Source: an uncultured archaeon
GTDB lineage: Archaea; Iainarchaeota; Iainarchaeia; Iainarchaeales; CSSED10-239
Reading direction: 5' to 3'
Length of the DNA: 17,877 nucleotides
Assembly (NCBI GenBank): GCA_964496765.1
Contig: CAZCAP010000001.1
Location: forward strand, 45,632-63,508
Position numbers and translations under genes: made by a program. Position 1 is the stretch's first letter; each line of letters opens with the position of its first letter. The notes under the pieces were generated by a model. That model did no database searches. It was not told the origin of the DNA and was given only the letters and a program-made list of their open reading frames with translations. Shown in pieces: positions 1 to 16,632 of this stretch.

Positions 1-525
1 TTGGGTGTTTCTGTTGCTGCAAAAACATTGATGTCCTATTCTATGCAGCTTAGAAATTCTGATGAAGTTTCTAAAATGCTAACTAACCTAATATCAAGTG
101 TAACTGGTACGTTATCCAGCATGGCAAAGTACATTGCTCCAATCGTTCTTGGAATCACAACAGCTCTTCAAAAGATAGTTATATCCACTCTTACGTCCAT
201 TGCAAACAGTGGTACTCTTGATGAAATGAACAATGCATTTAACTCATTTACAACATCAGGGATAAGCACAGGTGGAATGGATGTTTCAGGAATAGGTTCC
301 ATTGGTTCAATAGATATGGGTGCAGTTAGTCAGCTTGCTGGTCCAACAACCTTCTTAATAATAGTTGCAATCTATGTGATTGAGATAGTTATTATTATGA
401 CATTCTTTACAACAATGGTTGAACAGGATAACATAACTCTTGCAAAACTAAGAATAGCACAAACATTACCAATAGCTACCATTTTATTTATCTTAACCAC
501 AATTGTGTCTAATCTAATATTTTAA
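1..525 (+). CDS. Polytopic membrane protein, C-terminal part (5' end outside window); possibly the PilC/FlaJ/TadC-like platform protein of the adjacent pilus locus
   Basis: The reading frame is open to base 1, so the ttg at position 1 is an edge artefact rather than a start. Long hydrophobic segments are present (YIAPIVLGITTALQKIVISTL, TTFLIIVAIYVIEIVIIMTFF, LPIATILFILTTIVSNLIF). The gene lies directly upstream of, and co-oriented with, a run of class III signal peptide genes. The family assignment is contextual; I saw no diagnostic motif. Confidence 0.45.
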   Translation: MGVSVAAKTLMSYSMQLRNSDEVSKMLTNLISSVTGTLSSMAKYIAPIVLGITTALQKIVISTLTSIANSGTLDEMNNAFNSFTTSGISTGGMDVSGIGSIGSIDMGAVSQLAGPTTFLIIVAIYVIEIVIIMTFFTTMVEQDNITLAKLRIAQTLPIATILFILTTIVSNLIF

Positions 526-539
526 ATTATTGAGAAAAT

Positions 540-1022
540 ATGAAAGCAGCAAAATTAGCTACTCTGAAAAAAGCATTATTAAATCAAAAAGTAATTACAA
601 ATGTTGTTCATGATAAAAAAGGTATAAAGACTAATGAGTATCATTTAACCTATAGAGAAAGAGGAAAAACACTTGAAATTCATGATTTTGTTTCTAATGG
701 AGGACTCACCTATAAAAAAGCAATTGCCTTTAAAAAGAAATTAATTAAACATGCAAAAGATAATAACATGAATAAGATTGTTGCAAATACCTGGATATTT
801 TATGAATATCCAAAATATGCTGAGTTGTTTGGATTCAAACTAGTAGAAGGTAGTGCAAGAGATTATGAACGTCTTAAAAAAAAGTATAATGTTAAAAAGA
901 TAATAGGGGCAGATGTAAACAAATACAGATTGTATGCCTTTGATAACACAGGTAACATATGTGTAATGAAATTCAATTTTAAACATACGCTCCCAAGATG
1001 GGAATTGGATTTAAATGGATAA
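540..1022 (+). CDS. Hypothetical soluble Lys-rich protein (160 aa); weak GNAT-acetyltransferase-like pattern
   Basis: ATG lies 14 nt after the upstream stop, and the ORF has no hydrophobic segment. The stretch FVSNGGLTYKKAIAFKKKLIKHAKDNNMNKIV...YAELFGFKLVE loosely resembles the GNAT core (strand, G-rich loop, helix, then a ...LY.k.GF.. strand). The antisense ORF 863..1399 is a shadow. Confidence 0.55.
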   Translation: MKAAKLATLKKALLNQKVITNVVHDKKGIKTNEYHLTYRERGKTLEIHDFVSNGGLTYKKAIAFKKKLIKHAKDNNMNKIVANTWIFYEYPKYAELFGFKLVEGSARDYERLKKKYNVKKIIGADVNKYRLYAFDNTGNICVMKFNFKHTLPRWELDLNG

Positions 1023-1028
1023 TTAAAT

Positions 1029-1535
1029 ATGAATAAACTATTCAAAAAAATTAGCTTGAATGAGAAGGGAGATGAAGCATTTGAATCCTTTCGTCTTCTA
1101 ATTGCTTTTGCTCTAGCAACAGCTGTTCTTGTAATCATTATCGTTATGGTGGGCAGAGTAAACAACCAATCAATCATTATCAGCACAGCGAAGCTTGAAG
1201 AAGGAGTAATTTCTGCAAGCAAAGGTCCAGGAGTAACCACTGAAACCCCATTTATTATTGAAGATGTTATGCTTTCAGGAATAATTTCTAAAGATAGAAT
1301 ATCCAAGTTAACTGGATACTCAAAAAATTGTATAGCTTTTATAACAGGTCCTGGTTTTGAAAATAATGATGCATACATAGAAGTAAATAAAAAGTACATT
1401 AAAACAGATGTTTATGTTTATTGTGGTTTCGGGAATTCAATTCCTTCTGAAATAACTTCATTATTTAATTTCAATTGTCCAACATATTGTGCATTATATT
1501 TTAATGTAAGTCCACCAAGTAGCTTATACCCATAA
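1029..1535 (+). CDS. Prepilin-like protein with class III-type signal peptide (non-canonical KG|D site)
   Basis: The N-terminus MNKLFKKISLNEKG-DEAFESFRLLIAFALATAVLVIIIVMV has a basic leader, a Gly, then a hydrophobic helix of about 20 residues. Its globular part shares the motif IS..TG.S...(I/V).F with ORF 2167..2703 (ISKLTGYSKNCIAF vs ISENTGLSPDQVRF). ATG lies 6 nt after the upstream stop. Confidence 0.65.
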   Translation: MNKLFKKISLNEKGDEAFESFRLLIAFALATAVLVIIIVMVGRVNNQSIIISTAKLEEGVISASKGPGVTTETPFIIEDVMLSGIISKDRISKLTGYSKNCIAFITGPGFENNDAYIEVNKKYIKTDVYVYCGFGNSIPSEITSLFNFNCPTYCALYFNVSPPSSLYP

Positions 1536-1555
1536 CTATAAATTAATTATAATTG

Positions 1556-2068
1556 ATGAAAAATATGAACATACTAAACAAATTAAAATGGTTTTTAATT
1601 GCAATCATTATTCTAGTACTTGGTTACTTCTTTGGATTAATCATCCTTGGAGTTATCTTTGGAATAATAATACTTTTAACCATATTCTTTGTTTTGAGTC
1701 TAATACTAAATAAGTTAATTGATTTAGTTAAAAGTGGTTTTATGAAAAACCTAATTAAGATGGTATTTGCATCAGGGATCACTGTTGCTATTATCCTGAT
1801 CTTTTGGAAACTATTCTTTGTCCCCATTATCATAAAATCAAGCACAACAGGAATAACACTCATATGGGTAGTAACTGCTATTTTATTTGGAACGCTATGG
1901 AACTTTATGACAATTAGAAGAAGAGTAATATATACCTATAAGAATCATTTATTTGATTATAAACAATCAAAACAGCAACCAGGAATACACGTATGGGATA
2001 TACTTTTCATGCTTATAATCCCAACCATAATAACAGTATGCTTTAATCTAGTATATCAGATAGTTTAA
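1556..2068 (+). CDS. Small integral membrane protein (about 5 TM helices, basic loop before the last helix)
   Basis: Four hydrophobic segments are followed by a basic loop (RRRVIYTYKNHLFDYKQSKQQPG) and a final TM. I prefer the ATG at 1556 over the track's TTG at 1553. The antisense ORF 1624..1863 is a shadow. Confidence 0.7.
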   Translation: MKNMNILNKLKWFLIAIIILVLGYFFGLIILGVIFGIIILLTIFFVLSLILNKLIDLVKSGFMKNLIKMVFASGITVAIILIFWKLFFVPIIIKSSTTGITLIWVVTAILFGTLWNFMTIRRRVIYTYKNHLFDYKQSKQQPGIHVWDILFMLIIPTIITVCFNLVYQIV

Positions 2069-2089
2069 AGGAAACGTCAGAGAAATACA

Positions 2090-2097
2090 TTTAAATA
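2090..2097 (+). promoter_or_regulatory. TATA-box-like element (TTTAAATA) upstream of pilin gene 2167
   Basis: TTTAAATA matches the archaeal TATA consensus TTTAWATA. It lies in a 98-nt AT-rich spacer, about 70 nt upstream of the ATG, which leaves room for a leader carrying the RBS at 2150-2157. Confidence 0.35.
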
Positions 2098-2149
2098 TGT
2101 TTTGATTTAATGTTTTAATTGAAAAACATATAATATTTATGTCTATTAT

Positions 2150-2157
2150 AAGGAGGA
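2150..2157 (+). promoter_or_regulatory. Shine-Dalgarno site AAGGAGGA for ORF 2167
   Basis: This is the strongest RBS-like sequence in the window, ending 9 nt upstream of the ATG at 2167. Confidence 0.6.
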
Positions 2158-2166
2158 CGAATAAAA

Positions 2167-2703
2167 ATGTTAGACTTATCAAATATTTTAAAATTTAAAA
2201 ACAAAAAAGGACAAGCATTCTCAACCTTTCAATTATTAATTGCAGCTGTTGTTGCACTTGCTCTTTTAGGAGTATTAATGCCAATAATTATGAAGACACT
2301 TGGATTTGCTCAGGGAGATCCAATCTCAACCTCAAAGCAATTGCTTCAAGGTCAGGTTGATAATCCAGGAACTCTCGCATACACAGATTCCGTTGCTTTC
2401 ACAGACAAAAAAAAATCATTAACAGCATCAGGAATATCTGAAAACACAGGTTTATCTCCAGATCAAGTTAGATTTGCAAGTGATCTAGATAATGATTTTG
2501 ATGTGCTAGTTGATGGAAAAGGAATAAATTATAAAAAATCAACTAAGGGAACATACAAGATAGGAATTATCTGTGATTATATAGAAAATTTAGATGATTC
2601 AATAGATGCATACGTAGAAATACCAACAACAGCAGATTCAGGTTTATTTCCTAACATAACTGAACAAAAAGTATGTGTTGTATTCCCTAAGAGAGCTTCA
2701 TAA
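2167..2703 (+). CDS. Archaeal-type prepilin-like protein (class III signal peptide, KKG|QAFSTFQLLIAAVVALALLGVL)
   Basis: It has the canonical architecture of basic leader, G|Q, then hydrophobic helix, plus a strong RBS. It is a paralogue of ORF 1029..1535 by shared internal motifs. Confidence 0.8.
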   Translation: MLDLSNILKFKNKKGQAFSTFQLLIAAVVALALLGVLMPIIMKTLGFAQGDPISTSKQLLQGQVDNPGTLAYTDSVAFTDKKKSLTASGISENTGLSPDQVRFASDLDNDFDVLVDGKGINYKKSTKGTYKIGIICDYIENLDDSIDAYVEIPTTADSGLFPNITEQKVCVVFPKRAS

Positions 2704-2745
2704 AGCTCTTTTCCCTTCCCTTTTTTATTTCTTTTCTTTTATTAT
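2704..2745 (+). terminator. Pyrimidine/oligo-T tract after pilin gene 2167..2703 (candidate archaeal terminator), running into an AT-rich promoter-like stretch
   Basis: The sequence agctcttttcccttcccttttttatttcttttcttttatt is almost pure pyrimidine with T6 and T4 runs. Archaeal termination typically uses oligo-T. It is followed by ttatatatt and aggatga (SD-like), the latter ending 8 nt before the ATG at 2767. Confidence 0.4.
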
Positions 2746-2766
2746 ATATTTAGGATGAATTAAATT

Positions 2767-2988
2767 ATGAAAAGATTAATTGCAGATCTAAAGAAAGCTC
2801 TTAAGGAGAATAGAGGACAGGCAGAATCAAGTACTCTTTACATGCTTCTTATTGTTGTTATTGTTGCAATCATCCTAATAGCTGTTGTTAAACCAATGTT
2901 TAATAATTCTGTTAAAGCAAGTGCTAAAAAAGCAGCTCTTCCTTCTAACACAGTTACTGGTGGAACTGAAGGAACAGCTACAAGTTAA
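2767..2988 (+). CDS. Mini prepilin (73 aa; predicted mature 56 aa) with class III signal peptide, candidate major pilin
   Basis: MKRLIADLKKALKENRG|QAESSTLYMLLIVVIVAIILIAVV is followed by only about 30 residues, which include an NNS sequon and a Thr/Gly-rich tail (TVTGGTEGTATS). The gene has its own upstream signals. Confidence 0.7.
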   Translation: MKRLIADLKKALKENRGQAESSTLYMLLIVVIVAIILIAVVKPMFNNSVKASAKKAALPSNTVTGGTEGTATS

Positions 2989-3115
2989 ACTTATTATCTT
3001 TAGTTGAATGTTTCTAAATTATATAAAAACTAAACGTTATGTAGCCATAGGTTACAATTTAATAAAACGTAATATATTTAATTCTTTCTATATAATATAT
3101 ATTTGGTGCTAACAA

Positions 3116-3613
3116 ATGGAAATAGTTATATCTGATTCATCAACTTTAATATTATTATCTAAATCAAAATTGTTAATAAAACTTATTCAGTTTGTAAAAA
3201 TTCACATACCAAAAATAGTTTACAGTGAAGTGTTAAAAGGTAAAGAAAAAAATTATTATGATGCTTTTGAAATTGAAAATTTAGTTATGAACCACAAAAT
3301 TACAATTTCTGAACCAAGTCAAAGCATGGTCAATGAAATTGCAAAATTATATAAGATTGATATTGGAGAATTATATGCAATCGCTCTCGCAAAAGAATTA
3401 AATAAAATAATATTGATTGATGATAGAAAAGGAATAAATGTATGTAATTGTTTGCATTTGCAGTTGTATACCTCATGGTTACTTCTGTTTGAGATGTATA
3501 AAACTAAATTAATTACTAGTGAAAATGCAAAAGAATCCTTAAATTTATTAATAATAAATGGAAGATTCAATAAATCAGAAATAGAAGAAATGAAAAAATT
3601 AATTATGGGATAA
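3116..3613 (+). CDS. PIN-domain toxin, DUF3368/COG2405-like
   Basis: The sequence follows the family pattern throughout: MEIVISDSSTLILLSKSKLL (N-terminal acidic residue plus LI.L), ...IPKIVYSEVLKGKEK..., IGELYAIALAKELN, then ILIDDRKG and NGRFNKSEI. A GGTG RBS lies 7 nt upstream (3105-3108). Confidence 0.8.
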   Translation: MEIVISDSSTLILLSKSKLLIKLIQFVKIHIPKIVYSEVLKGKEKNYYDAFEIENLVMNHKITISEPSQSMVNEIAKLYKIDIGELYAIALAKELNKIILIDDRKGINVCNCLHLQLYTSWLLLFEMYKTKLITSENAKESLNLLIINGRFNKSEIEEMKKLIMG

Positions 3614-3615
3614 AT

Positions 3616-3999
3616 ATGACCTTGAAAAATGTAAATCTAAGACTCGATGAAAAAGCAACTAGCCAAGTAGACTTAATTATAAAACTAGATACTCTTCTTG
3701 ATAAGGCAAACGTTTATAGAAAAGCAATAGACATAGGACTTAAAGAAATTTCTAAAGAGCTTGCAATTAAATTATATTCAGAAGACGAAATATCTATGTC
3801 TGAAGGTGCAAAACTTTGTAACATTTATATAGGTGAGTTTATGGATATGCTTAGAGAAAGAGGAATAACTCAGAAGGCCTATACTCAAGAACAAAGAGAT
3901 TACATACTAAGTAACATAAATGCACTTAGACCTGCTTTTCTTGCTGAAAAAAAGAAGATTATTAAATATAATTCAAAAATTAAAAAAAACACAAAGTGA
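3616..3999 (+). CDS. UPF0175 (COG2886)-like antitoxin partner of the PIN protein, with a Lys-rich C-terminal extension
   Basis: The core LAIKLYSEDEISMSEGAKLCNIYIGEFMDMLRERGI matches the UPF0175 signature (..LY.eg.iS.g.aAel.g....eF...L.erGI). Its ATG lies 2 nt after the PIN stop, consistent with translational coupling. Confidence 0.75.
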   Translation: MTLKNVNLRLDEKATSQVDLIIKLDTLLDKANVYRKAIDIGLKEISKELAIKLYSEDEISMSEGAKLCNIYIGEFMDMLRERGITQKAYTQEQRDYILSNINALRPAFLAEKKKIIKYNSKIKKNTK

Positions 4000-4017
4000 A
4001 AATGAAAAGAAAACTAA

Positions 4018-4025
4018 TTTAAATA
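4018..4025 (+). promoter_or_regulatory. TATA box TTTAAATA positioned for a leaderless transcript of ORF 4047
   Basis: This is a perfect TTTAWATA match. Its centre is about 25-26 nt upstream of the ATG at 4047, which is the usual archaeal TATA-to-TSS distance. No SD lies in between. Confidence 0.4.
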
Positions 4026-4046
4026 CTTCTTATTATATTTTAGTAT

Positions 4047-4631
4047 ATGATTTCAAGTGAAGAGTTAAGAAAAGGACAAGTTAGTGCACCTTTCGAAGTT
4101 CTGGTTGCTGTAATTGTTATGGGTTTCGTTATTCTTGCAGGAACCTATGCACTAAAGAATTTATCTGAAAACACCTGTCTTGGAGATAAGAGAAAGGAAA
4201 TGGGTGATCTTGTTTCTTCCCTAAGAGATGTTGTTCTTGGTTCAGATCTTACTTTTAGAAATATAACCTTCCAAACAAAAGCTTGTTTCAATGCAAAAGC
4301 AGAAAGCATTCAATTGAATATCTATAATGAACAAAGTAGATGTACAGCCTACTGTGGAAGTGGAGTTAGCTGTGTTCTCCTAGAATATGTTTATAATGAT
4401 GAAGTCAAGCAACAACGTAAATATCCAATACCTCCAATCTGTACTGGTCTTCCACCAACAATAAACTTTATTACTGTTAATGCAGAATGTGGAATACTAC
4501 CAGATGATCCATGGACTTTAGTTGATCCAGTTACTCAAAAAATAATTGAACCAGGAAGATATAGATTATTTAGAGCAGAAACAGCTGCTGGAACAACAAC
4601 AGCAAACTTTTGCTTTCTAAAAAGCAAATAA
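4047..4631 (+). CDS. Prepilin-like protein, class III signal peptide (RKG|QVSAPFEVLVAVIVMGFVILAG), 8-Cys globular domain
   Basis: The leader is canonical, and QVSAPFEVL approximates the QxSxExxxL class III motif. There are eight cysteines, including the cluster SRCTAYCGSGVSC. Confidence 0.75.
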   Translation: MISSEELRKGQVSAPFEVLVAVIVMGFVILAGTYALKNLSENTCLGDKRKEMGDLVSSLRDVVLGSDLTFRNITFQTKACFNAKAESIQLNIYNEQSRCTAYCGSGVSCVLLEYVYNDEVKQQRKYPIPPICTGLPPTINFITVNAECGILPDDPWTLVDPVTQKIIEPGRYRLFRAETAAGTTTANFCFLKSK

Positions 4632-4652
4632 ATTAATGATAGGTGCAAATGA

Positions 4653-5345
4653 ATGATTGAATTTACTTTATCCAAGCTCAATTTGTTAATCTTTGTAACT
4701 GCTATTGCTGCAATTGTTTTATTTTTCATGAATACTGTTTCATCAAATCTAATGACTAGACAAGGCTTTGAGCTTGCCTACAAGACAGGAAAAGAACTTA
4801 AGGCAGCAATTGATTCTGAAAGCTATTGTACTTTAAAATATATAGACATTCCAGTTAAACTAAAAACAAATGAAAGCCTATCATCTGTATATTCTGTTCC
4901 CTATATAATGAATATATCTACACATGAATTTGATCCAATAGAACAATATGAAAATAAACTAGTAATTACTATTATGAATCAAAAAAAAACAAAAATACTT
5001 GCTGCCTATGATGTTGACTATAATGGGGAAATTACTTTCATAAATGCATTTAAAACAGATACAAATCCAAGATATTATGAGGGTGTGAATAATTGGGAAA
5101 CAAATGACGAAAATATAAATCTCAATCCAACAAGAGAAGACTCAATTGATGCAACTATCCTTTTTATTAAAAAAGTACAAGATAATAAAAATCATTTTTA
5201 CATGATGCCCTGTTCAAAAAAATATGGCTATAGAACATGTTTATATTATGTAATGCCCAAAATATATCCAGATAATGACCTGGATCCAAATGTAAATGTA
5301 AACTGCATAGAAATTGAAAAAGAATTAATAACAGAACCAAACTAA
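4653..5345 (+). CDS. N-terminally anchored extracellular protein of the pilin cassette (pilin-like, no canonical Gly cleavage site)
   Basis: MIEFTLSKLNLLIFVTAIAAIVLFF is an immediate hydrophobic helix after a 4-residue leader. An AGGTG RBS lies 7 nt upstream (4641-4645). The gene sits 21 nt after ORF 4047, and ORF 5359 follows 13 nt later. Confidence 0.5.
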   Translation: MIEFTLSKLNLLIFVTAIAAIVLFFMNTVSSNLMTRQGFELAYKTGKELKAAIDSESYCTLKYIDIPVKLKTNESLSSVYSVPYIMNISTHEFDPIEQYENKLVITIMNQKKTKILAAYDVDYNGEITFINAFKTDTNPRYYEGVNNWETNDENINLNPTREDSIDATILFIKKVQDNKNHFYMMPCSKKYGYRTCLYYVMPKIYPDNDLDPNVNVNCIEIEKELITEPN

Positions 5346-5358
5346 ATGAGATGAAATA

Positions 5359-5910
5359 ATGGTAAAAAATAAAAAAGGATTTATTGGAGCAATCGGAGAT
5401 GATCTTCCTAGTCTTATTCCAATCTTCCTTGGTTTGATTATTTTTTTCGCAGTTTTCTTGAGCACCTACAACACATACAAAACAAACACAGGCCTCTATT
5501 CACTTGAACAGGAAGCAATATCCATTTCAATGATCCTAAAATCAGAACCACTAATCCCTGATTATAATTTATTCATGAAAACTTGTAATAAAGTTAGCAC
5601 AACAAAAAAATGGAATGCATTTATTGTTGACCTACCATTGGACACAAACCAGCAGGAAATATTAAGTATTAATGATCCTGATAATCTATATGGAAACCAA
5701 ATTAAGATTTTTCCAGAAGATCCAGCAACAAACCCACCAAAAAGATATATTTGTGATGATAATCTAGAAAATCTAACTAATCTATTAAATATCAAAGACG
5801 CAACAACTAAAAAAATAACCTATCTATATCCAATAACATTACAGGATGGAAAATTTGCTAAGCCCGCAAGATTGTATGTTATTGTTTCTGAAGAACAAAA
5901 AGATGTATAA
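5359..5910 (+). CDS. Prepilin-like protein with variant site (KKG|FIGAIGDDLPSLIPIFLGLIIFFAVFL)
   Basis: It has a basic leader, a Gly at residue 7 and a hydrophobic helix. GAGATGA (one mismatch to GAGGTGA) lies 4 nt upstream. Its stop lies 2 nt before the next start. Confidence 0.6.
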   Translation: MVKNKKGFIGAIGDDLPSLIPIFLGLIIFFAVFLSTYNTYKTNTGLYSLEQEAISISMILKSEPLIPDYNLFMKTCNKVSTTKKWNAFIVDLPLDTNQQEILSINDPDNLYGNQIKIFPEDPATNPPKRYICDDNLENLTNLLNIKDATTKKITYLYPITLQDGKFAKPARLYVIVSEEQKDV

Positions 5911-5912
5911 AT

Positions 5913-6743
5913 ATGTTAAATGTACTTGAAGTAATAAATAATAGAAAGAAAGGCCAAGCAGCAATAACTGATGCACTCTTCTTTCTAACCATAATTGTAA
6001 CGCTTGCAGTATTATTGTTTAAGTTTTCATCCACCTATGGAGATAGAATTGATCTTGCAACTTCAAATCTTTATTTTAAAGAATATTCTAACTCAGCAAT
6101 GAAAACAATATTTTATTCAGAGGTTCCACTTGATTATTCTCTTAATCTTGAAACCGCAGGAGAAGCAGATTATTTAATGACATCAATTAAAGCAGATTAC
6201 TTTAAAGATGGGGTTATTGGAAAGACACTACCACAAGTAAGTGGAGGGGATCATAATTTAATTAACAAGATATCAGGAATGGATGGAGATGATATTGCGA
6301 AATTTAATCTCTATCACACAATTAAAGCTGTTATGTATCCTCTACCAACCTATGATTATGTATTCTATTTGTACAACATAGATTTAGAGAGATTTGAATT
6401 TGTTCTAATTAAACTAACTGATTTTGGGGCAATTAGTAATCAAGCCACAAACTATCAAGTAACCTATAGTGATGACCCCTTCCAAAAGTATTATCTGTGT
6501 AATCCAAATAGTTATTCTGAGATTAGAACTCTAGTTGAAAAAGTAAATAGAGTATACGCATCATCAATACCTCTACAATTTGTTGTAAATAATGTGGATA
6601 GGCAAATAAATAATACGTTTGCAACCTGGGCAGCAACCACAGCAATCACAGAGGATGATCTAGTAAATGATTACATGAATTGTATAGAAATAGATGATGA
6701 CCAAATTAAAGAAGATGCAGCTGCAAATCCACTAATGGATTAA
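5913..6743 (+). CDS. Prepilin-like protein, class III signal peptide (NNRKKG|QAAITDALFFLTIIVTLAVLLF), large 276-aa member
   Basis: It has a canonical KKG|QA leader and is the last gene of the cassette. Its acidic C-terminus overlaps the convergent gene at a shared TTAA. Confidence 0.75.
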   Translation: MLNVLEVINNRKKGQAAITDALFFLTIIVTLAVLLFKFSSTYGDRIDLATSNLYFKEYSNSAMKTIFYSEVPLDYSLNLETAGEADYLMTSIKADYFKDGVIGKTLPQVSGGDHNLINKISGMDGDDIAKFNLYHTIKAVMYPLPTYDYVFYLYNIDLERFEFVLIKLTDFGAISNQATNYQVTYSDDPFQKYYLCNPNSYSEIRTLVEKVNRVYASSIPLQFVVNNVDRQINNTFATWAATTAITEDDLVNDYMNCIEIDDDQIKEDAAANPLMD

Positions 6744-7432
6744 AATTTCAATCCTAAATCATCATCAGAATCTTCGTTATCATTATCCAATAAATCTAAA
6801 TCTTCTTCTTCCTTAAGTAATTTAGAAATATCTGTTTTCTTTGTGGGTTTTGTTGTTTCCTTTGCTTTCTTAGAAACCTCTTTTGATTTTTGATTTTCAG
6901 ATTCTTTTTCCCTATCTTTCTTTATTTTATCTTGAATCTCTTTATTCTTTGCTTTATTTATTTCTTCGGTTTTGTTTTCATTTTCAATCTGAATATACAA
7001 ATCATCAACAACAAGTCTTAGTTTATCCCTATCAATTGAAACATCAAAATTATCATCAGTTTGCTTTTCCGTGCTTGGAGATTTAATTCCTGTGTCAGAG
7101 CTTGCTCTATAGTGTTTAGTAACTGCACTCTTAACAATGTTTTTTTCTAACTCAATATTATTTACTTTTAACTCATCATAAATTGCATCAGCAATACTAT
7201 CAAGATCAGGATTAATAACCTCTGACATATCATCAAGAACCTTGTTCATTAGTTCCTTCTTATCCAATGATACATTCGTTGGCACTACTTTTTCAATCTT
7301 GGTTTTAGAATTACCTACAGTAGAATAATCATCAGAAACATCATCTATTGGGCTTGTGGTGTACACAATTTCCCCATCAACAATCTTTCTATAATGTCTT
7401 TTTTCTCGTCTATTTAATGTATTTGCATCCAT
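6740..7432 (-). CDS. Hypothetical acidic / Lys-Glu-rich protein with a C-terminal acidic tip ...EDSDDDLGLKF
   Basis: The long minus-strand ORF has clean coding character. The track start at 7486 is a TTG inside promoter-like AT-rich DNA. The first ATG is at 7432, with tatataat about 30 nt upstream on this strand. The protein has a charged, coiled-coil-like central region and no TM. Confidence 0.6.
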   Translation of the reverse strand: MDANTLNRREKRHYRKIVDGEIVYTTSPIDDVSDDYSTVGNSKTKIEKVVPTNVSLDKKELMNKVLDDMSEVINPDLDSIADAIYDELKVNNIELEKNIVKSAVTKHYRASSDTGIKSPSTEKQTDDNFDVSIDRDKLRLVVDDLYIQIENENKTEEINKAKNKEIQDKIKKDREKESENQKSKEVSKKAKETTKPTKKTDISKLLKEEEDLDLLDNDNEDSDDDLGLKF

Positions 7433-7527
7433 AATTATCAAATTTAGTATATAACAGGTATATAATAATCCTTTTAAATGTTTCAATTATAAATATAATA
7501 TATATTTTAAATAAAAAAGGATTAAAA
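7433..7527. promoter_or_regulatory. AT-rich divergent promoter region between the minus-strand gene 6740..7432 and the plus-strand operon 7528..13154
   Basis: The region contains several TATA-like words (tatataat, ttataaat, tttaaata) on both strands. Exact boxes and transcription starts cannot be assigned by eye. Confidence 0.4.
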
Positions 7528-8049
7528 ATGATTGATATTATCCTAAACTATGTTTGGTTTATTCTTAAGCTATTGGCATTATGTATTGCTTTATCAATTC
7601 CAATACTTATTTTAACTTATATATTTAAGGGATGGTTTGAAAGATCAAAGAAAAGTTTTTTGTTTAAACTATCTCTGGTTACCTATCTAATCTCTCTAAT
7701 TGGAATCTGTTTAATCTATTTCATTCCTGTTTTCAAGATTGGGTTAGGAGATGGCTATGGTTTCTGGAACTATATTGTATTTATTTTCCTACATCTTCTT
7801 TGGTTTATAATAATAAATATCCTAATTACAGCTATAATAATTATATTTGGAATGATAACAAAAGGAATATATGATTCATTCCTAAAAAAGAAAAACTTGA
7901 AAAACAAAAAGAAAGTAAAAGCAATTGAACCAATAAGCATAAAGTTCCTATGGATTAGTTTAATAATCACATGGATTATTATATTTATAGTATATATTGT
8001 GTTCCCTAAATTAATTGCAATGCTATTATACTTAATTTATTTATCTTAA
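7528..8049 (+). CDS. Small integral membrane protein (4-5 TM, basic loop KKKNLKNKKKVK before the last TM), likely co-transcribed with the giant gene
   Basis: It is strongly hydrophobic, and its stop lies 23 nt before the giant ORF start. It contains a GLGDG motif between hydrophobic segments. The antisense ORF 7770..7970 is a shadow. Confidence 0.7.
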   Translation: MIDIILNYVWFILKLLALCIALSIPILILTYIFKGWFERSKKSFLFKLSLVTYLISLIGICLIYFIPVFKIGLGDGYGFWNYIVFIFLHLLWFIIINILITAIIIIFGMITKGIYDSFLKKKNLKNKKKVKAIEPISIKFLWISLIITWIIIFIVYIVFPKLIAMLLYLIYLS

Positions 8050-8072
8050 ATATAAATGGATGATGAGAAACA

Positions 8073-11000
8073 ATGAAAGACTTTGATATCAATAAAATAA
8101 TTACTGTAGTATTCCTCCTATTATTTTCAACAGGTGTATTTGCATACAATGTTGACTATGATAGATTAAATCCAGTAGTAACAAGTACAGTAAATAATAA
8201 ATCAACTCTTTTTTTTGCAGATGCAACATCCAATGCACAGGATCAAATAAATGATTTCGGAGGAGGGTGTTATACTGAGACACTTCCAAAGGAAAGTATT
8301 GAAAAAATATGGAATGATATTCTAGTTAATGGATTTAGAATTGATAAACTCTCATCAAACATAGAAGCAAACACAAATAGAGATACACTTGATAAAAGTG
8401 AAGTGATGTTAACTGACTCAACAACCAAAGGTGGAGATGTTGTTATTAAAAAAGACATGCCTTCACAGATCATGGAACCTCTTGAAACTCCAGGAATCCT
8501 TGGAGAAGTTTGTTCAGGTCCCTATTCATATTCTATTAATTTAAAATCAACTTTAAGAGTAGGAAGATGCGCAGATAATAATGTTGCATGCTATCTCTCA
8601 AGCGGTGGATTGTTTAGACAAAATGGAAACGAAGGTTTCTTTAAAGAAATACAAACAGTTGGGCAGGATATGCTAGACATGGTTGGTGTTAATAAGGTAA
8701 AAGAATTTGCTGGAGAGGTTGTAAATTCAGATCTTAACTTTGATACCAATGTTGATCTAGGAATGTTCTCTGATATGTCAGCTGAAGAATTAGCATACTT
8801 TAGTCAAACACAACTTGTGGATGCTAATAGAACATCAATTGATATTCAAAAAACAAATTTATTATTAGATAAGGCAATTAAGAATAGTTATAAAACAGAC
8901 ACATTCAATGCAAGCATGGAAACAACCTGTTCAGGAGAAAATTGTTATATTAATGTTTATTCTCTATTTGATAAAGTATTTAATCAATACTTCTCAGCAG
9001 ATCTTGTAATGTCTTCAGTATCTCCTCTTCTCTGGAAAGCAGCAACAGGAATATTTGGAAGAGGAACAAACATTCTAAGGAAATACACAGGAATAGATAA
9101 TATTAGTAAGAAGATTGCTGGTAAAGATAAGTTTTTCAAACAAGGTGGGTTTGTTGACAACATTTTAAATAATAGAAATAATCCTCTAAGAGCAATAAGC
9201 AATGCAACAGAACTTAAGACAGCACTAAGAGATGTTGATTCATATTCTAGATTACTTGCAGAAAAACAAGCAACCAATCTTAAGAAACTACAGAGATATG
9301 AGCTTGAACCAGTAATGAATGACTATGTTAAGGTTCTAAAAGATAAGAAACAAATTGATGCTCTAAAGAAAGAATTTTTTGAAGGTGGTAAATTCGCTAA
9401 ACTTAACAAAGCTCAAAAAAGAATATTCTTTGAAGTTGCTCAAGATTATCATGATCAAATTAAAATAACTAAAGCTGTTATTTCTAGTCTAGAAACAGAT
9501 CCTATATATAAAAGTGCATATGAAACAGCAAGAAAAGAACTTCTAAACATATCAACAGGAGAAGTTAAACTAGGAACAACAATTCCAAAAGATATGACTG
9601 ATTTTTATAAAGCACTAACAAAAGAACAATATAAAGCACTTGAAGATAATACTATACAAATAAACAAACTTGCAAAAGACTGGGAAAGCTTTTCTAATGA
9701 TCAAATACCTTGGAAGGAAGGACAAAGCAATCTCAAATCAATAACCGAAAGAAAATTTTACAAACAAGAAGTAAATCCAAATACTGGAGCATTAGAAAAC
9801 AAAGAATATTTAATGAATAAAGTAAAACCAACTGACCAAGGTAATCCAATTAAGATTACAGAAACTGGCGGGGGTGGAAAGGATGCATTTATTCCTCTTG
9901 GTGATGGAAAAGGAACACTGCTTGATAAAAAAAATACATTTGTTACACAAAAAGTAACAGTTAACTTTGCAGATGGCCCACAGGAAATTATAAAATATGT
10001 ACCCTATGCTGAGCAGGTTGATGTTGTTAAAGGAGGAACCTTCTTTACTGATCAGCTACAAGCATTTAAATCAATGCCAGATGTTTATATTGAATATAAA
10101 AGTGTAGCTGGACCAATGAAAAAGGTTAGAGCAACAGATCTTGCTGAATCAGATATTGATCCAGCATATAATTCATTTAATTGGTATCCAATTAAATTAC
10201 AACCAGATGATGTTGTAAAGTATGGTTATGATCCTGTTGAGTTATCAACTGATTTTACAAAAACAGCAAACATACGTTTTGGAGATATGGAAACAGTTTC
10301 TGGAAAAACAATGGAGCTTATGCAAAACCAAGGATGGGTTTCAGGAAAAGGAATTAATTGGATAAATCAAAAAATGAAAGCAATGGATGTTACAAACTTT
10401 AAAAAAAGCCCATTAAACATACTTGCTAATCCATTGAAAGCATATGCCTACAATGTATTCTATTGGGAATTCAAATCTGGTTTTGTTCACAATCCTCTTG
10501 GACTTGATATGTTTAAAGATTATTCACTATACAGAATACCAGATACATACACAGCAGTAATCATACAACCAGGAGAAACAGGAGATGTATACAAGGACGC
10601 ATATATTGATTTCTTTGCTAATGATGGTTCTGATCAGGGAGACCTATTTGAACAATACTTTAACTCAATGCTCTTTTGGATAGTTAAGATTGCAAAGGAA
10701 GGATTATACAATTGGGATATAGGAGCTGCAGAAAGTGTAAGCAATTGGATAAAAGAATTTACTGAAAATCAAATAAGAAGAAGTGCAGTGGATGATATTG
10801 TTCTATTAACTGATGCAGAAAATGGTGGATGTACGAGCTCATGTACAGTTAAGATAGGAGATGGTACAGTTCTTGAAAAAAGAACATTAGATAATTCAAT
10901 GCTTCTTGATACTCAAAAAGAAAATGACCCTTTCACTTCTGATGTAACAACCAATAATCAAGAATCCAATACAATTAACCCAACAATACCAACTATTGAA

Positions 11001-13154
11001 AAATTAAATATAGTTATGTCTGTTCCAAATGGAGTAAAAACACCAAACTATGTTCTTGAAAACACAACTGCAGAAAACACAAAGGATGAAGGACAAACAT
11101 TAATTACCTTCTCCCATCATACAAACTATGATGGAACCATTGCAGGAGATACAACAAAAGATTCTGTAAATCTAGCTCAGGCAAATAATGATGAAACAAC
11201 CTGTTCAGCAAAGATCAGAGATCTTGAATTACTTGGTGTTCCAATTGGTTGGACAGTTAATTGGACAGGAAAAACCTACAGAGCAGGAATGGTTTCTGCA
11301 ATTTCTAGTAACCTTGCATATTATGTTTTATCTGCACCTAGTCATCGTATGATGATGGGTATGGTTGTTGGAGACATTGTCCCACAAATGCTAATCGTAC
11401 CAGAAATAAATAACTGTATTGATGATGAAGAAGGTTATTACACACACATATTTGTTGCTAAAGAAGAATATGAAAGAATTGAAGGAGATCCAAAAAATAA
11501 AATAGGAGACATGGTTTCAAAGGGTGCTGATGGAGTTACTCAAACATTATCAGGAGTAACAAATGGTACAAAGCTTCAGGATGTGGTTCAAGCAGGAGCT
11601 GCAGAAGTTAAGAATCTAGCAGAAACTAAACTAAAGGATAATCCAATTGTTCAAGCTAGATTTGAAACAATAAATAGCACAACAGGTTCTCTTGAAGGTA
11701 AACTTTTCTTCTTTGAGCTTGGAAAAGGTTCAAGCTGTAGAGCAAGTGGATACAATGATAAGGGTGTTGAATACCTAACTGACGCACAAACCAAACAAAC
11801 ACTTGTTATTGATAAAGAAATTGGAGAACTTGCATTAATTGATGAAAAGGGAAATAAAAATATTATTATTCCATCAGAAAAAAAGGACTTTGTAAGATTA
11901 ATTGCAACTAATCTAGGTATTCCAGCAAAGGTAATACCACACAAGATAAGTTACATACCTGTTCCTGATGATAATTCTCCATTGTTCACAATGGATGTTT
12001 ATGGTAATCTAACTATTGAGAACCAGGACGTTCTTTCTTGTCTTAAATCAAACTATAATTCCCAAACAGGATTAACAATGGAAGGATCAGTCCTAACTGA
12101 CTATATTGGTCCAGTAAAAATGATAACAAACAGTAACCCAATTGATCCAACCACTCAATATGATTTAATACCTAAAGGCCTTCTAGGAGCAACAGAGATT
12201 GTTGCTGAGGGAAGTCCAAGGAAGATTGCAGATGGAGCAGGCGCAAAAGCTGTAATCATGGGTAATCGTATGACCAGATTAAGCCCTGTTGAAGGAAAAA
12301 CTGAAGGGGTAGGACAGAACATAGCTATTCAGTTTGAAAGAGGCCAGCTTATTTACAATGGAGAGAAAAACAGCTATATACTCTGGGTTGAGCAAACAGC
12401 AGTAATTAACCAAACTGAGGTTGGAGGACTTAAAACTAATCTTGTAAAATACACAAATGATCAAGGTTGTGAAGAGGTTGCACTTGATTTCAAAATAACT
12501 CCAAAGGAAGGAAGTGGAGAAGCTGCAAAAAAAGCAGCAACAATGAACACTGCTCTTGAAAACGTTGGACCTTTCCAAATGTTTGATACTGCAACTAAAT
12601 CATTTATTTTCTATACAACTCCTGCACCAGAGTGTGAGAAAAGATTAAAAATAATTGATAAGCTCACTGGTCAGGTAATAACTGATCAAGCAATAACAGA
12701 TATTGTTGAAACTCCAGATGGAATGATTGTAACAACCGCTGATGGACAACAGCATAATTTCGCATTCTCTGCAGAGGATGGAGTACCTAAGCTTAAATAC
12801 AATGATGAAACACAAACTCTATTATCTGCTCAGGGTAAGAATGGTGCTTTCTACTATGATCCAAACACAGGTAACTGGTACACAGAGAACGGACACCTAA
12901 TCCCATTCAATCCAGAATACAAGGATGGAATCATGTACAAGACTGGTGAAGATGGTAAAGTTTATGGAACACCAAATGAAAATCCAATGAACATAAACAT
13001 AGGTTCTACTGGTGGAGCAAGCAAGGGATTCAATATACCTCTAACTCCAGAAAAAACCGGAATTGCAATTACCTATGTTGCTGCAATCATCTTTGGATTA
13101 GTTGCAATCTTTGTAATGATTGGTCCAATAAATAGAAAAAAGAAGAAAAAATAA
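8073..13154 (+). CDS. Giant secreted, C-terminally anchored surface protein (1693 aa); candidate adhesin or S-layer-like protein
   Basis: This is a 5-kb uninterrupted ORF. The N-terminal signal peptide is MKDFDINKIITVVFLLLFSTGVFA|YN. A helical K/E-rich segment falls at about nt 9200-9750, and a T/N/P-rich linker at about nt 10925-11000. The C-terminus is PEKTG, then a TM (IAITYVAAIIFGLVAIFVMIGPI), then NRKKKKK. No enzyme motif was recognised. Confidence 0.85.
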   Translation: MKDFDINKIITVVFLLLFSTGVFAYNVDYDRLNPVVTSTVNNKSTLFFADATSNAQDQINDFGGGCYTETLPKESIEKIWNDILVNGFRIDKLSSNIEANTNRDTLDKSEVMLTDSTTKGGDVVIKKDMPSQIMEPLETPGILGEVCSGPYSYSINLKSTLRVGRCADNNVACYLSSGGLFRQNGNEGFFKEIQTVGQDMLDMVGVNKVKEFAGEVVNSDLNFDTNVDLGMFSDMSAEELAYFSQTQLVDANRTSIDIQKTNLLLDKAIKNSYKTDTFNASMETTCSGENCYINVYSLFDKVFNQYFSADLVMSSVSPLLWKAATGIFGRGTNILRKYTGIDNISKKIAGKDKFFKQGGFVDNILNNRNNPLRAISNATELKTALRDVDSYSRLLAEKQATNLKKLQRYELEPVMNDYVKVLKDKKQIDALKKEFFEGGKFAKLNKAQKRIFFEVAQDYHDQIKITKAVISSLETDPIYKSAYETARKELLNISTGEVKLGTTIPKDMTDFYKALTKEQYKALEDNTIQINKLAKDWESFSNDQIPWKEGQSNLKSITERKFYKQEVNPNTGALENKEYLMNKVKPTDQGNPIKITETGGGGKDAFIPLGDGKGTLLDKKNTFVTQKVTVNFADGPQEIIKYVPYAEQVDVVKGGTFFTDQLQAFKSMPDVYIEYKSVAGPMKKVRATDLAESDIDPAYNSFNWYPIKLQPDDVVKYGYDPVELSTDFTKTANIRFGDMETVSGKTMELMQNQGWVSGKGINWINQKMKAMDVTNFKKSPLNILANPLKAYAYNVFYWEFKSGFVHNPLGLDMFKDYSLYRIPDTYTAVIIQPGETGDVYKDAYIDFFANDGSDQGDLFEQYFNSMLFWIVKIAKEGLYNWDIGAAESVSNWIKEFTENQIRRSAVDDIVLLTDAENGGCTSSCTVKIGDGTVLEKRTLDNSMLLDTQKENDPFTSDVTTNNQESNTINPTIPTIEKLNIVMSVPNGVKTPNYVLENTTAENTKDEGQTLITFSHHTNYDGTIAGDTTKDSVNLAQANNDETTCSAKIRDLELLGVPIGWTVNWTGKTYRAGMVSAISSNLAYYVLSAPSHRMMMGMVVGDIVPQMLIVPEINNCIDDEEGYYTHIFVAKEEYERIEGDPKNKIGDMVSKGADGVTQTLSGVTNGTKLQDVVQAGAAEVKNLAETKLKDNPIVQARFETINSTTGSLEGKLFFFELGKGSSCRASGYNDKGVEYLTDAQTKQTLVIDKEIGELALIDEKGNKNIIIPSEKKDFVRLIATNLGIPAKVIPHKISYIPVPDDNSPLFTMDVYGNLTIENQDVLSCLKSNYNSQTGLTMEGSVLTDYIGPVKMITNSNPIDPTTQYDLIPKGLLGATEIVAEGSPRKIADGAGAKAVIMGNRMTRLSPVEGKTEGVGQNIAIQFERGQLIYNGEKNSYILWVEQTAVINQTEVGGLKTNLVKYTNDQGCEEVALDFKITPKEGSGEAAKKAATMNTALENVGPFQMFDTATKSFIFYTTPAPECEKRLKIIDKLTGQVITDQAITDIVETPDGMIVTTADGQQHNFAFSAEDGVPKLKYNDETQTLLSAQGKNGAFYYDPNTGNWYTENGHLIPFNPEYKDGIMYKTGEDGKVYGTPNENPMNINIGSTGGASKGFNIPLTPEKTGIAITYVAAIIFGLVAIFVMIGPINRKKKKK

Positions 13155-13267: not shown

Positions 13268-14761
13268 ATGTCAAGACTTGAAGAATACGAAGAATCAAGA
13301 AGAAATAACTATAACTATCTTCTTGAAAACAAAATAGAACCCTATCCCTATGAATTCAATAGAACACACACATCAAAAAATATTAAAGAAAAATATTCTA
13401 CTCTTGAAGCTGACAAGTTCACAACTGAAGAAGCATCCTATGCAGGACGTTTATTACTATTTAGAAATATTGGAAAAATAATTTTCCTAGATCTCTATGA
13501 TTCCTATGGAAAAATGCAAGTGGTTGCAAAAGATGATACCCTATCAAAAGAAGATTTTGATTTACTTCAACATGTGGATAAGGGAGACATTCTTGGAGTT
13601 AGAGGAAAAATATTTAAAACAAAAAGAGGGGAAATCTCAATTGAAGCAGAGAGCATAATTTTTTTATCAAAAGCTTTCCTTCCTCTTCCTGATAAGTTTC
13701 ATGGTTTATCAGATCCTGAATTAAGATATAGAAAAAGATATTTAGATTTAATGACAAATCAGGATGTTAAAGATGTCTTCTATAAGAGAGCAGAAATACT
13801 TTCAATCATAAGAGAAGTGTTTGCTAAACGTGGTTTTCTTGAGGTTGAAACTCCACTTCTTCAACCACTTTATGGTGGAGCTAATGCCAGACCGTTTGTA
13901 ACCGAAAGCTTTGTTTGGAAAAGAAAATTATATTTATCCATTTCTCCTGAGCTCTATCTTAAAAGATTACTAGTTGGTGGGTTTGATAAAGTTTATACAA
14001 TTTGTAAAAACTTTAGAAACGAAGGCGTTGATAAATCTCATAATCCTGAGTTTACTATGGTTGAAGCCTATGAGGCCTACAAGGATTACAACTCAGCAAT
14101 AGATTTAATTGAAGAGATTTACGAAACAATTGCATTAAGATTATTTAATACTACAAAAATAGTTTATCAAGATAAGGAATACGATTTCAAAAGACCTTGG
14201 AAGAAGCTTACAATGAAACAAGCATTACTTGAGTTTGGAAAAGTAGATGTTGATAAACTTAGTGATGATCAAATTAAAGAGATGCTTAAAGAACATAAGG
14301 TTGTTCTTGAAGATTATAAAAGAGGACTTGGAATATCTGAGTTGTTTGAGGTTCTTTGTGATGAACATCTATCAGGACCAATACATATCATAGACCATCC
14401 AAAAGAAACAACACCTCTTTGTAAATTACATAGAGATGATAAGACCCTAATTGAAAGAAACGAACCCTACATGCATGGTATGGAATTAGCAAACATCTAT
14501 TCAGAACTGAATGATCCAAACATTCAAGAAGAATTAATGTATGATCAAAAGGACCAAGGTAGAGCAAAAGGAGAAAGTCATCCAGTCGATACAGATTACA
14601 TTGAATCATTAAAGTATGGTATGCCACCAGCCTATGGAATAGGTTTTGGGGTTGATAGATTAGTTATGTTATTTACAAACTCTCAGAACATAAGGGATGT
14701 AATATTATTTCCAATGCTTCGTGAAGAAGATGGGAAAACAGAATCAGAAGAAAAGAAGTGA
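13268..14761 (+). CDS. lysS: Lysyl-tRNA synthetase, class II
   Basis: There is an N-terminal OB-fold region (GRLLLFRNIGKIIFLDLYDSYGKMQV) and ELRYRKRYLDLMTN. Motif 2 is ICKNFRNEGVDKSHNPEFTMVEAYEAYKDY and motif 3 is GIGFGVDRLVMLFTNSQNIRDVILFP. An AGTGAT RBS-like sequence lies upstream. Confidence 0.9.
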   Translation: MSRLEEYEESRRNNYNYLLENKIEPYPYEFNRTHTSKNIKEKYSTLEADKFTTEEASYAGRLLLFRNIGKIIFLDLYDSYGKMQVVAKDDTLSKEDFDLLQHVDKGDILGVRGKIFKTKRGEISIEAESIIFLSKAFLPLPDKFHGLSDPELRYRKRYLDLMTNQDVKDVFYKRAEILSIIREVFAKRGFLEVETPLLQPLYGGANARPFVTESFVWKRKLYLSISPELYLKRLLVGGFDKVYTICKNFRNEGVDKSHNPEFTMVEAYEAYKDYNSAIDLIEEIYETIALRLFNTTKIVYQDKEYDFKRPWKKLTMKQALLEFGKVDVDKLSDDQIKEMLKEHKVVLEDYKRGLGISELFEVLCDEHLSGPIHIIDHPKETTPLCKLHRDDKTLIERNEPYMHGMELANIYSELNDPNIQEELMYDQKDQGRAKGESHPVDTDYIESLKYGMPPAYGIGFGVDRLVMLFTNSQNIRDVILFPMLREEDGKTESEEKK

Positions 14762-16242: not shown

Positions 16243-16632
16243 TTATTTTTTTTTCTTGGATTTAATTTTTTTGATACCTTTATTTATTATTTTTACAATT
16301 TTTTTTTGTTTTTTATCAATATTCTTAAAACCAGTATTCACTTTCTTTATTACTTTATTCTTCTTTTTATCAATATTCTTAAAACCAGTATTTACTTTCT
16401 TTATTATTTTATTCTTCTTTTTATCAATCTTATCTAAAGTAGTATTAATCTTCTTTGTGATTTTTCTTTTTTTTGCGTTCTGTTTTTTAAAATGAGCCAT
16501 CATCTGATTAATAAGTTGAATTTCTTTAGCTTTCATTAGTTCTCTATTCAATATTTGATTATTTGGTGTAGATTTATGATAAGACTTAAAATTTTTCTTT
16601 GATGTTGATTTTTCCTTTTTTTGTACAACCAT
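16243..16632 (-). CDS. Highly basic Lys-rich protein (129 aa) with four 18-aa tandem repeats (IDKKKNK[IV]IKKVNTGFKN)
   Basis: A GAGGTG RBS lies 5 nt upstream of the ATG (16638-16643 on the plus strand). The repeat period of 54 bp is a multiple of 3 and the frame is maintained. The plus-strand ORFs 16222..16437 and 16256..16495 are low-complexity shadows. Confidence 0.7.
   Translation of the reverse strand: MVVQKKEKSTSKKNFKSYHKSTPNNQILNRELMKAKEIQLINQMMAHFKKQNAKKRKITKKINTTLDKIDKKKNKIIKKVNTGFKNIDKKKNKVIKKVNTGFKNIDKKQKKIVKIINKGIKKIKSKKKK
16311..16418. repeat. Two near-identical 54-bp tandem units (52/54 identical), flanked by one degenerate unit on each side (about 16257-16472)
   Basis: By direct comparison, unit 16311-16364 differs from unit 16365-16418 at two positions (C/T at offsets 29 and 43). 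The repeat lies inside CDS 16243..16632. Confidence 0.9.

Follow-up and report, generated by a model that had tools for sequence, protein, structure and literature searches.

A probable Epd/Tad-like type IV filament locus with seven pilin-like families in the Iainarchaeota

In the Epd pilus of Methanococcus the major pilin has no globular domain, as in the bacterial Tad pilus, and S-layer-like accessory proteins are frequent in archaeal type IV filament (TFF) loci (10.64898/2026.04.22.720090). As regards the DPANN archaea, one survey states that some type IV pilus (T4P) loci have components unlike known pilins, which were identified by context and signal peptides (Makarova, Wolf & Koonin 2019, PMC6393860), and type IV pili are listed for Diapherotrites in metabolic reconstructions (PMC8561730). 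Here we analysed a stretch of 17,877 nucleotides from an uncultured archaeon of the Iainarchaeota (Diapherotrites, DPANN), hereafter the window. The conserved unit under study spans positions 1-6743 and extends to about 13154. We consider it likely, with good confidence, that 1-6743 and, in functional terms, the stretch to ~13154 make up one half, the one with the subunits and accessory proteins, of a lineage-specific archaeal filament system of type IV and of the Epd/Tad-like kind, conserved throughout the Iainarchaeota.

Attachment to other cells is the presumed way of life of DPANN archaea, and the foremost candidates for making this contact are type IV filaments. Yet the filament subunits of Iainarchaeota have so far been annotated merely as hypothetical proteins.

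The ATPase, the platform and seven ordered families

A first-pass annotation of the window had proposed that six or seven genes for prepilin-like proteins form a divergent pilus-like locus. Comparative genomics upheld this proposal, through linkage to an ATPase gene and through seven families found in a constant order. An alignment of the platform protein was compared with the GTDB species representatives, which gave 235 relatives, and 80 loci were retained, all of them from DPANN-type, Iainarchaeota-like metagenome-assembled genomes (MAGs). The relatives included the complete genome of Candidatus Forterrea multitransposorum (64% identity) and one MAG (locus L014) that was 93% identical. Gene order across loci was traced with iterated hidden Markov models (HMMs) made from the window proteins. 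In addition, exact-protein look-ups recovered the locus on other contigs, among them a 56.9-kb ENA contig (L007), whose proteins match those of the window and which reaches 10 kb farther upstream. The platform gene and the seven families, labelled P1 to P7, lie in the window as follows (a slash within a sequence separates positions -1 and +1).

1-525, + strand: platform protein, T2SSF/TadC/FlaJ-like, C-terminal 174 aa; the rest of the gene lies upstream of base 1
1029-1535, + strand: P1, pilin-like, NEKG/DEAFESFRLLIAF in the window, family consensus KG/QAFExFRLLI
2167-2703, + strand: P2, pilin-like, KKG/QAFSTFQLLIAAV, with Cys136 and Cys170 conserved
2767-2988, + strand: P3, 73-aa head-less pilin-like protein, mature form ~56 aa, NRG/QAESSTLYMLLIV...KPMF
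4047-4631, + strand: P4, pilin-like, RKG/QVSAPFEVLVAV, RKG/QVSAPFEVLVAVIVMGF
4653-5345, + strand: P5, leaderless N-terminally anchored protein, starting MIEFTLSKLNLLIFV, MIE-FTLSKLNLLIFV
5359-5910, + strand: P6, pilin-like, KKG/FIGAIGDD..IPIFLGLIIF, with Phe at +1
5913-6743, + strand: P7, 276 aa, the largest pilin-like protein, RKKG/QAAITDALFFL

The window has a G+C content of 27-38%, and its bases 1-13154 are tightly packed with genes on one strand. Across the loci the order was fixed: ATPase, platform, P1 to P7, a variable gene on the opposite strand, a small membrane protein (~178 aa) and a surface protein of 1500-1700 aa. P1 to P7 were found in this order in all nine close loci, that is, in the window's clade, and in 16 of the 29 distant ones. 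Directly upstream of the platform gene and on the same strand, 56 of 58 distant loci carried a T2SSE ATPase gene. The locus ATPase of these relatives matched Pfam T2SSE with E=5.6e-18, and its nearest solved homologues were afGspE (2OAP), the Tad ATPase CpaF and FlaI. It usually measures ~760 aa and has a long N-terminal extension.

Some ATPase frames were much longer. In L029, L032, L051, L053, L054, L075, L077, L079 and L089 (~1260-1300 aa) they ran ~500-1000 codons beyond the usual 760, and the ATPase-holding frame of L083 reached 1815 aa. Such lengths hint at a large additional domain at the N-terminus or at fused genes.

The gene cut at base 1 had been taken for a platform gene, and this reading was supported. 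Its full length is found at L007:7752-9986 and encodes a polytopic membrane protein of 744 aa. The platform of the window lineage matched Pfam T2SSF over profile positions 5-125 of 125 with E=0.017 and 15.5 bits, below the cut-off of 25.2, and T2SSF was matched by 16 of 18 aligned members of the family (best E=4.8e-6). There were 388 platform homologues, many of them in Candidatus Diapherotrites or Iainarchaeum MAGs; several of those at 43-45% identity carried PF00482 or were listed by NCBI as "type II secretion system F family protein". The family profile had no match among the sequences of solved structures (PDB). Collectively, these data identify the 744-aa protein as a T2SSF/TadC-like platform.

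Class III signals, subunit families and structural models

Class III signal peptides were sought with the FlaFind 1.2 rule, that is, [KRDE][GA][ALIFQMVED][ILMVTAS] followed by an uncharged hydrophobic stretch (motif: PMC4307647). The background consisted of 650 non-pilin open reading frames (ORFs) of at least 100 aa each, taken from the related loci. The first-pass annotation had ascribed such signals to the ORFs starting at 1029, 2167, 2767, 4047, 5359 and 5913, and to a seventh, at 4653, a helix without the Gly. Coordinates and N-termini of the six were as described, and the seventh indeed had no Gly and no leader either. As to the signals themselves, five of the seven ORFs passed the rule (P2, P3, P4, P6 and P7). 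P5 failed, and so did P1, because its +2 residue is Glu. In comparison, none of seven other window proteins tested and 16 of the 650 background ORFs (2.5%) passed. A stricter pattern, [KR][GA]Q followed by a helix, was absent from all 650 background ORFs and occurred in most of the P1-P4 and P7 members. Since the motif of each family was kept across 39-79 orthologues, the N-terminal motifs are not a product of chance.

Five families, P1, P2, P3, P4 and P7, have a homologous N-terminal module in common, in which a basic leader with Gly or Ala at -1 is followed by a Gln (+1) and a hydrophobic helix. Among P1 orthologues, 46 of 78 passed the FlaFind motif. Positions 15-28 of P2 were invariant in 71 homologues. 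In P3, both Q18, which is the +1 Gln, and the KPMF that follows the helix were invariant in 39 sequences, and the mature peptides measured 38-56 residues. P6 is a small family, with 156 representatives among 1.84 billion proteins, and has the near-invariant motif GxIGDDLPSLIP. A relation of the leaders to PF04021 had also been put forward, and it was not detected by HMM: the model gave no match at E<=1 in the window proteins or at E<=0.1 in 137 members of the seven families, and all that they had in common with it was the +1 Gln and an acidic residue close by.

Profile-profile comparison (hhalign) related several of the families to one another. P1 and P2 were homologous over their full length (99.5%, E=3e-23), P4 aligned with both P1 and P2 over the N-terminal ~76 residues (~96%), and N-terminal similarity was also seen between P2 and P3 (80%) and, weakly, between P3 and P7 (67%). 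P5 and P6 had no profile similarity to any other of the seven families. In nine loci (L025, L026, L028, L031, L037, L040, L073, L084 and L087) one to three additional P2- or P4-like paralogues stood within the array, so the minor-pilin set would grow by local duplication.

Beyond the N-terminal helix, every globular family carried an even number of near-invariant Cys, namely four in P1, two in P2, eight in P4, four in P5, two in P6 and two in P7. These counts would fit disulfide-bonded extracytoplasmic heads. AlphaFold2 gave confident models of two subunits. That of P2 (71 sequences, mean pLDDT 87.9) showed a helix at 19-44, a break, a second helix at 52-64 and a beta-sheet. That of P6 (92 sequences, mean pLDDT 89.9) showed a continuous helix at 16-60 and an alpha/beta head with a long beta-hairpin at its end. 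In outline, both models resemble the helix plus beta-sheet head expected by the first-pass annotation.

P5 was a case apart. As it has no leader and a Glu in place of the Gly, P5 does not qualify as a prepilin in the window. In most distant relatives, P5 begins with MLG-FTLSK and its third residue is Gly or Ala, which might represent a three-residue leader. The third residue was Glu or Asp throughout the window's clade, which is the clade wherein the ATPase gene is no longer adjacent.

Taken together, the locus may work as follows. An ATPase-platform motor would pull the subunits out of the membrane and stack them via their N-terminal helices. The head-less P3 would be the major subunit, like EpdE in Methanococcus and Flp in bacterial Tad pili, whereas P1, P2, P4, P7 and probably P6 would be minor pilins of low abundance, acting as primers of assembly or making up the tip. 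P5 would be an uncleaved, membrane-anchored accessory protein. The filament would be used for adhesion to surfaces or to partner cells.

Such a subunit set also brings to mind a competence-type pilus that would import nucleic acids into a genome-reduced symbiont. Indeed, Com pili likewise combine one major with four or more minor pilins, and in the Forterrea genome paper the metabolism of Forterrea-like Diapherotrites is predicted to centre on nucleotide salvage (PMC5905446). However, no ComEC- or ComEA-like channel or DNA-binding gene was found in the 80 loci, the ATPases were nearest to the afGspE, CpaF and FlaI types, and no DNA-binding motif was identified in any subunit. We regard DNA uptake as very improbable.

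Absent partners, envelope proteins and rival explanations

Several observations weigh against a filament. As regards the motor, the ATPase gene was adjacent to the platform gene in none of the ten loci of the window's clade, and no ATPase gene was present in the window or within 10 kb upstream of it (L007). A shorter T2SSE paralogue (400-469 aa, Pfam E ~1e-29) lies on the opposite strand ~2 kb upstream in L014, L023, L094 and L096 (400-413 aa at L014:3851-5053, L094:3878-5074 and L096:1634-2875); in these sister lineages it sits between an F420-ligase-like gene and AP-endonuclease/Zn-ribbon genes, and it is precisely deleted in the window lineage (syntenic site L007:4810-4961). As regards the subunits, no Pfam pilin model was matched by the window proteins or by the 137 members of the seven families, NCBIfam had no match for window P1-P7, the family profiles retrieved no pilin among PDB sequences, and Foldseek found nothing in the PDB at E<0.3 for the P2 and P6 models. 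Window P1 reads KG/DEAFESF, with Asp-Glu where its orthologues have Gln; position -1 of P3 is now and then T, C, S or E in relatives; and window P5, without a leader and with Glu at -1, fails the cleavage motif. A scan of all ORFs in ~2 Mb of related loci for a GxGD motif in a multi-transmembrane (multi-TM) context gave no credible prepilin peptidase, nor did one turn up in the window. Lastly, we infer both the major-pilin role of P3 and the formation of a filament, and likewise a function in cell-cell attachment or uptake.

Much of this agrees with what the first-pass annotation had noted, namely that the window holds neither an ATPase nor a prepilin peptidase gene and that the globular domains are unrecognisable, P1-P7 having no Pfam or NCBIfam match. 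It had pointed to the contig upstream of base 1 for both the ATPase and the rest of the platform gene, and of these two the 744-aa platform turned up in L007 and the ATPase did not turn up within 10 kb. Judging from gene order, the clade to which the window belongs appears to have lost the adjacency of the cognate ATPase gene to the locus. Because the Forterrea paper names a "secretion-related ATPase" (PMC5905446), the clade would have an ATPase somewhere in its genome, and the window's own genome may have one as well. A prepilin peptidase would have to be encoded elsewhere in the genome, and a peptidase gene away from the pilus locus is common in archaea (PMC4858521).

Three proteins were considered as the peptidase and discarded. 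The 173-aa membrane protein at 7528-8049 could have been a minimal TadV-like GxGD peptidase, as it reads GLGDG in the window, but neither the motif nor any Asp was conserved in 35 orthologues. The four-TM protein at 1553-2068 had no GxGD motif, which speaks against an A24 peptidase. In L011 and L013 a polytopic protein of 336 aa is encoded upstream of the ATPase; considered as an EppA-like peptidase with nine TM helices, it had no catalytic motifs and a weak match to GPDPase_memb.

The lack of any sequence or Foldseek match to known pilins, the absent peptidase and the non-adjacent ATPase in the window's clade would all suit ordinary signal-anchored (type II) membrane proteins, whose N-termini merely resemble class III signals and which form no filament. 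We hold this to be extremely unlikely. The genes are tightly linked to a T2SSE ATPase and a T2SSF platform, in the 56 of 58 distant loci mentioned above. In five families the [KR][GA]Q junction falls exactly at the start of the helix, an arrangement seen in 0 of the 650 background ORFs, and an invariant Gly-Gln junction would be needless for a mere anchor. The AlphaFold2 models of P2 and P6 are, moreover, predicted to be pilin-like in architecture.

Beyond the array, the conserved locus continues with two envelope genes, and other genes stand between or beside the pilin-like ones.

540-1022, + strand: 160-aa basic soluble protein between the platform gene and P1, a lineage-specific insertion
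1553-2068, + strand: 171-aa multi-pass (4-TM) membrane protein between P1 and P2
3116-3613, + strand: PIN-like (DUF3368) toxin of a toxin-antitoxin (TA) pair, PIN E=0.006, precomputed PF11848
3616-3999, + strand: UPF0175-family antitoxin of the TA pair, PF03683 E=1.6e-9
6740-7486, - strand: 248-aa acidic, Lys-rich protein, kept at this site only in the window's clade (13 loci)
7528-8049, + strand: 173-aa multi-pass membrane protein, which always precedes the giant surface protein and is part of the conserved locus
8073-13154, + strand: 1693-aa surface protein, the last conserved gene, with a Sec-type signal at the N-terminus and a sorting-like one at the C-terminus

The small membrane protein and the 1693-aa surface protein would be envelope partners of the filament, either S-layer-like or an adhesin. 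No Pfam domain was found in the surface protein. Its tail (window 13026-13154) reads FNIPLTPE, then a TM helix, then KKKKK, and in relatives (L013, L030, L033, L036, L066 and L078) the corresponding parts are (P)FNLPSLPE, a hydrophobic helix and a basic tail. Such a three-part tail looks like a sorting signal of the exosortase/archaeosortase type. As a matter of fact, a small archaeosortase-like gene (Pfam Exosortase_EpsH, E=3e-8) lay a few kb upstream of the ATPase gene in 41 related loci; none was seen within 10 kb upstream of the locus in the window lineage.

The constancy of these two genes raised another possibility, that the pilin-like proteins form a short pseudopilus, as in type II secretion, which exports the surface protein and its membrane partner, inserts them or opens the envelope locally for them. 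The pair is found as the conserved last genes in seven of seven close loci and 17 of 27 distant ones, and it persists beside ATPase, platform and P1 where the locus has no P2-P7 (L036, L047 and L078). Seven distinct, single-copy pilin-like families are reminiscent of the sets of pseudopilins in secretion systems, and S-layer-like accessory proteins of archaeal TFF loci have been proposed to prime the envelope (10.64898/2026.04.22.720090). Yet the surface protein has its own Sec-type signal and a sorting-like tail, and an archaeosortase-like gene is nearby in those 41 loci; this would give it an independent route of export and anchoring, which weakens the case for a pseudopilus. Besides, a head-less, Flp/EpdE-like protein such as P3 is typical of true pili. 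Archaea are not known to have a function like type II secretion, which weighs in the same direction. All in all, we consider a pseudopilus, the main rival reading, unlikely.

A broader view would be that of an integrated, phylum-specific surface organelle in place of a free-standing adhesion pilus, wherein the small membrane protein and the 1500-1700-aa surface protein are linked mechanically to the machine of ATPase, platform and pilins. If so, the organelle could act, for instance, like a piston or pseudopilus, with a giant adhesin for host-cell contact being deployed, anchored or retracted by it. This idea remains doubtful in our eyes, and we retain the adhesive filament as the preferred explanation.

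As for the genes that interrupt the array, the first-pass annotation had rightly seen a TA pair and two non-pilin genes. The pair is made of a UPF0175 antitoxin (E=1.6e-9) and a PIN-like/DUF3368 protein, and the two others are those at 540-1022 and 1553-2068. The 160-aa protein at 540-1022 had no Pfam or NCBIfam match, and its gene was limited to the window lineage and the 93%-identical relative L014 (11 of 94 loci). The four-TM gene was confined to the window's Forterrea-like clade (21 loci). The TA genes, which are the sole annotated genes within 1-6743, were limited to the window lineage and its closest relative; since the toxin was found in merely seven loci and the antitoxin in six, the pair is best seen as an insertion. 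Judged by their distribution, the 160-aa gene and the PIN/UPF0175 pair are predicted to be recent insertions. The restriction of the interrupting genes to the window's lineage or clade thus indicates real insertions into an older, conserved array.

A few features of the window stand aside from the locus. A 178-aa antisense ORF (863-1399, - strand) overlaps the 160-aa gene and P1, and is probably spurious, given that conservation lies with the genes of the + strand. Farther downstream, a lysyl-tRNA synthetase gene (13268-14761) encodes a class II enzyme (tRNA-synt_2, E=1.7e-83); many archaea use a class I lysyl-tRNA synthetase. A very Lys-rich protein of 129 aa (16243-16632, - strand) includes 2.9 copies of a 54-bp (18-aa) tandem repeat at 16310-16464. 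Scans for tRNAs, Rfam families and tandem repeats gave nothing that bears on the locus.

What is new and how the locus compares with known systems

The results are useful for annotation and for DPANN cell biology, and they will not surprise a specialist. They provide seven families with their motifs, the constant order of these in 80 genomes and the real limits of the locus, in other words family definitions that annotators can use. They also bring a candidate head-less major pilin, P3, as a target for proteomics and antibody work, two confident structural models, P2 and P6, as targets for structure determination, and a clade wherein the ATPase gene appears unlinked from the locus.

Among the closest described systems is the Epd pilus of Methanococcus maripaludis (TFF "system 1", EppA-dependent). 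As in the present locus, most of its subunits carry Gln at +1 behind a basic leader with Gly or Ala at -1, the major pilin (here candidate P3) is tiny, has no head and goes with several larger minor pilins, and a FlaI/TadA-type ATPase and a TadC-like platform belong to one operon-like cluster; adhesion is the role proposed for both. Differences are nonetheless clear. At the HMM level the window families resemble neither PF04021/DUF361 nor any family of Epd pilins, a single platform gene of 744-780 aa replaces the two of system 1, no dedicated EppA-like peptidase was found in or near the locus, and the ATPase is ~760 aa long, with its long N-terminal extension, and unlinked in the window's clade.

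The bacterial Tad/Flp pilus shares with the locus a tiny head-less major subunit (here candidate P3) in whose mature part an acidic-aromatic pair comes early (QSEW in P3, EY in Flp), and CpaF is among the nearest solved homologues of the ATPase. The DDLPSLIPL of P6 presumably recalls, in a loose way, a TadE-type N-terminus that Pfam did not detect. On the other hand, the pair of P3 is EW or ES at +3/+4, whereas the Flp motif G/XXXXEY has EY at +5/+6. Matches to Flp_Fap were marginal (E=0.02-0.1) and far under the Pfam cut-off, window P3 scoring E=0.096 and 13 bits (cut-off 32.2) and the best of the 137 family members E=0.02, and there was no match to TadE. No secretin, TadZ or TadV genes were found here, and the host is an archaeon.

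For P5, a possible analogy is with ArlF/ArlG of the archaellum, given the giant surface protein nearby. ArlF/ArlG (FlaF/FlaG) have a hydrophobic N-terminal helix, no canonical cleaved leader and an extracellular beta-rich domain, and are thought to tie the machine to the S-layer. On the other side, there was no sequence or fold match, and the locus has no ArlH, ArlCDE or ArlX genes and no detected archaellin family.

Finally, the locus fits exactly the picture drawn of the "dark matter" pilin loci of DPANN archaea, wherein, according to the survey, a recognisable ATPase and TadC are accompanied by a surface protein and by unrecognisable, signal-bearing small ORFs (PMC6393860). The machine is therefore not of a new kind, since divergent, unrecognisable pilins in DPANN T4P loci had already been noted there. 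The survey offers one illustrative locus (its Fig. 2A) and a general statement, and the present analysis defines seven families, their order and their motifs across 80 Iainarchaeota genomes.

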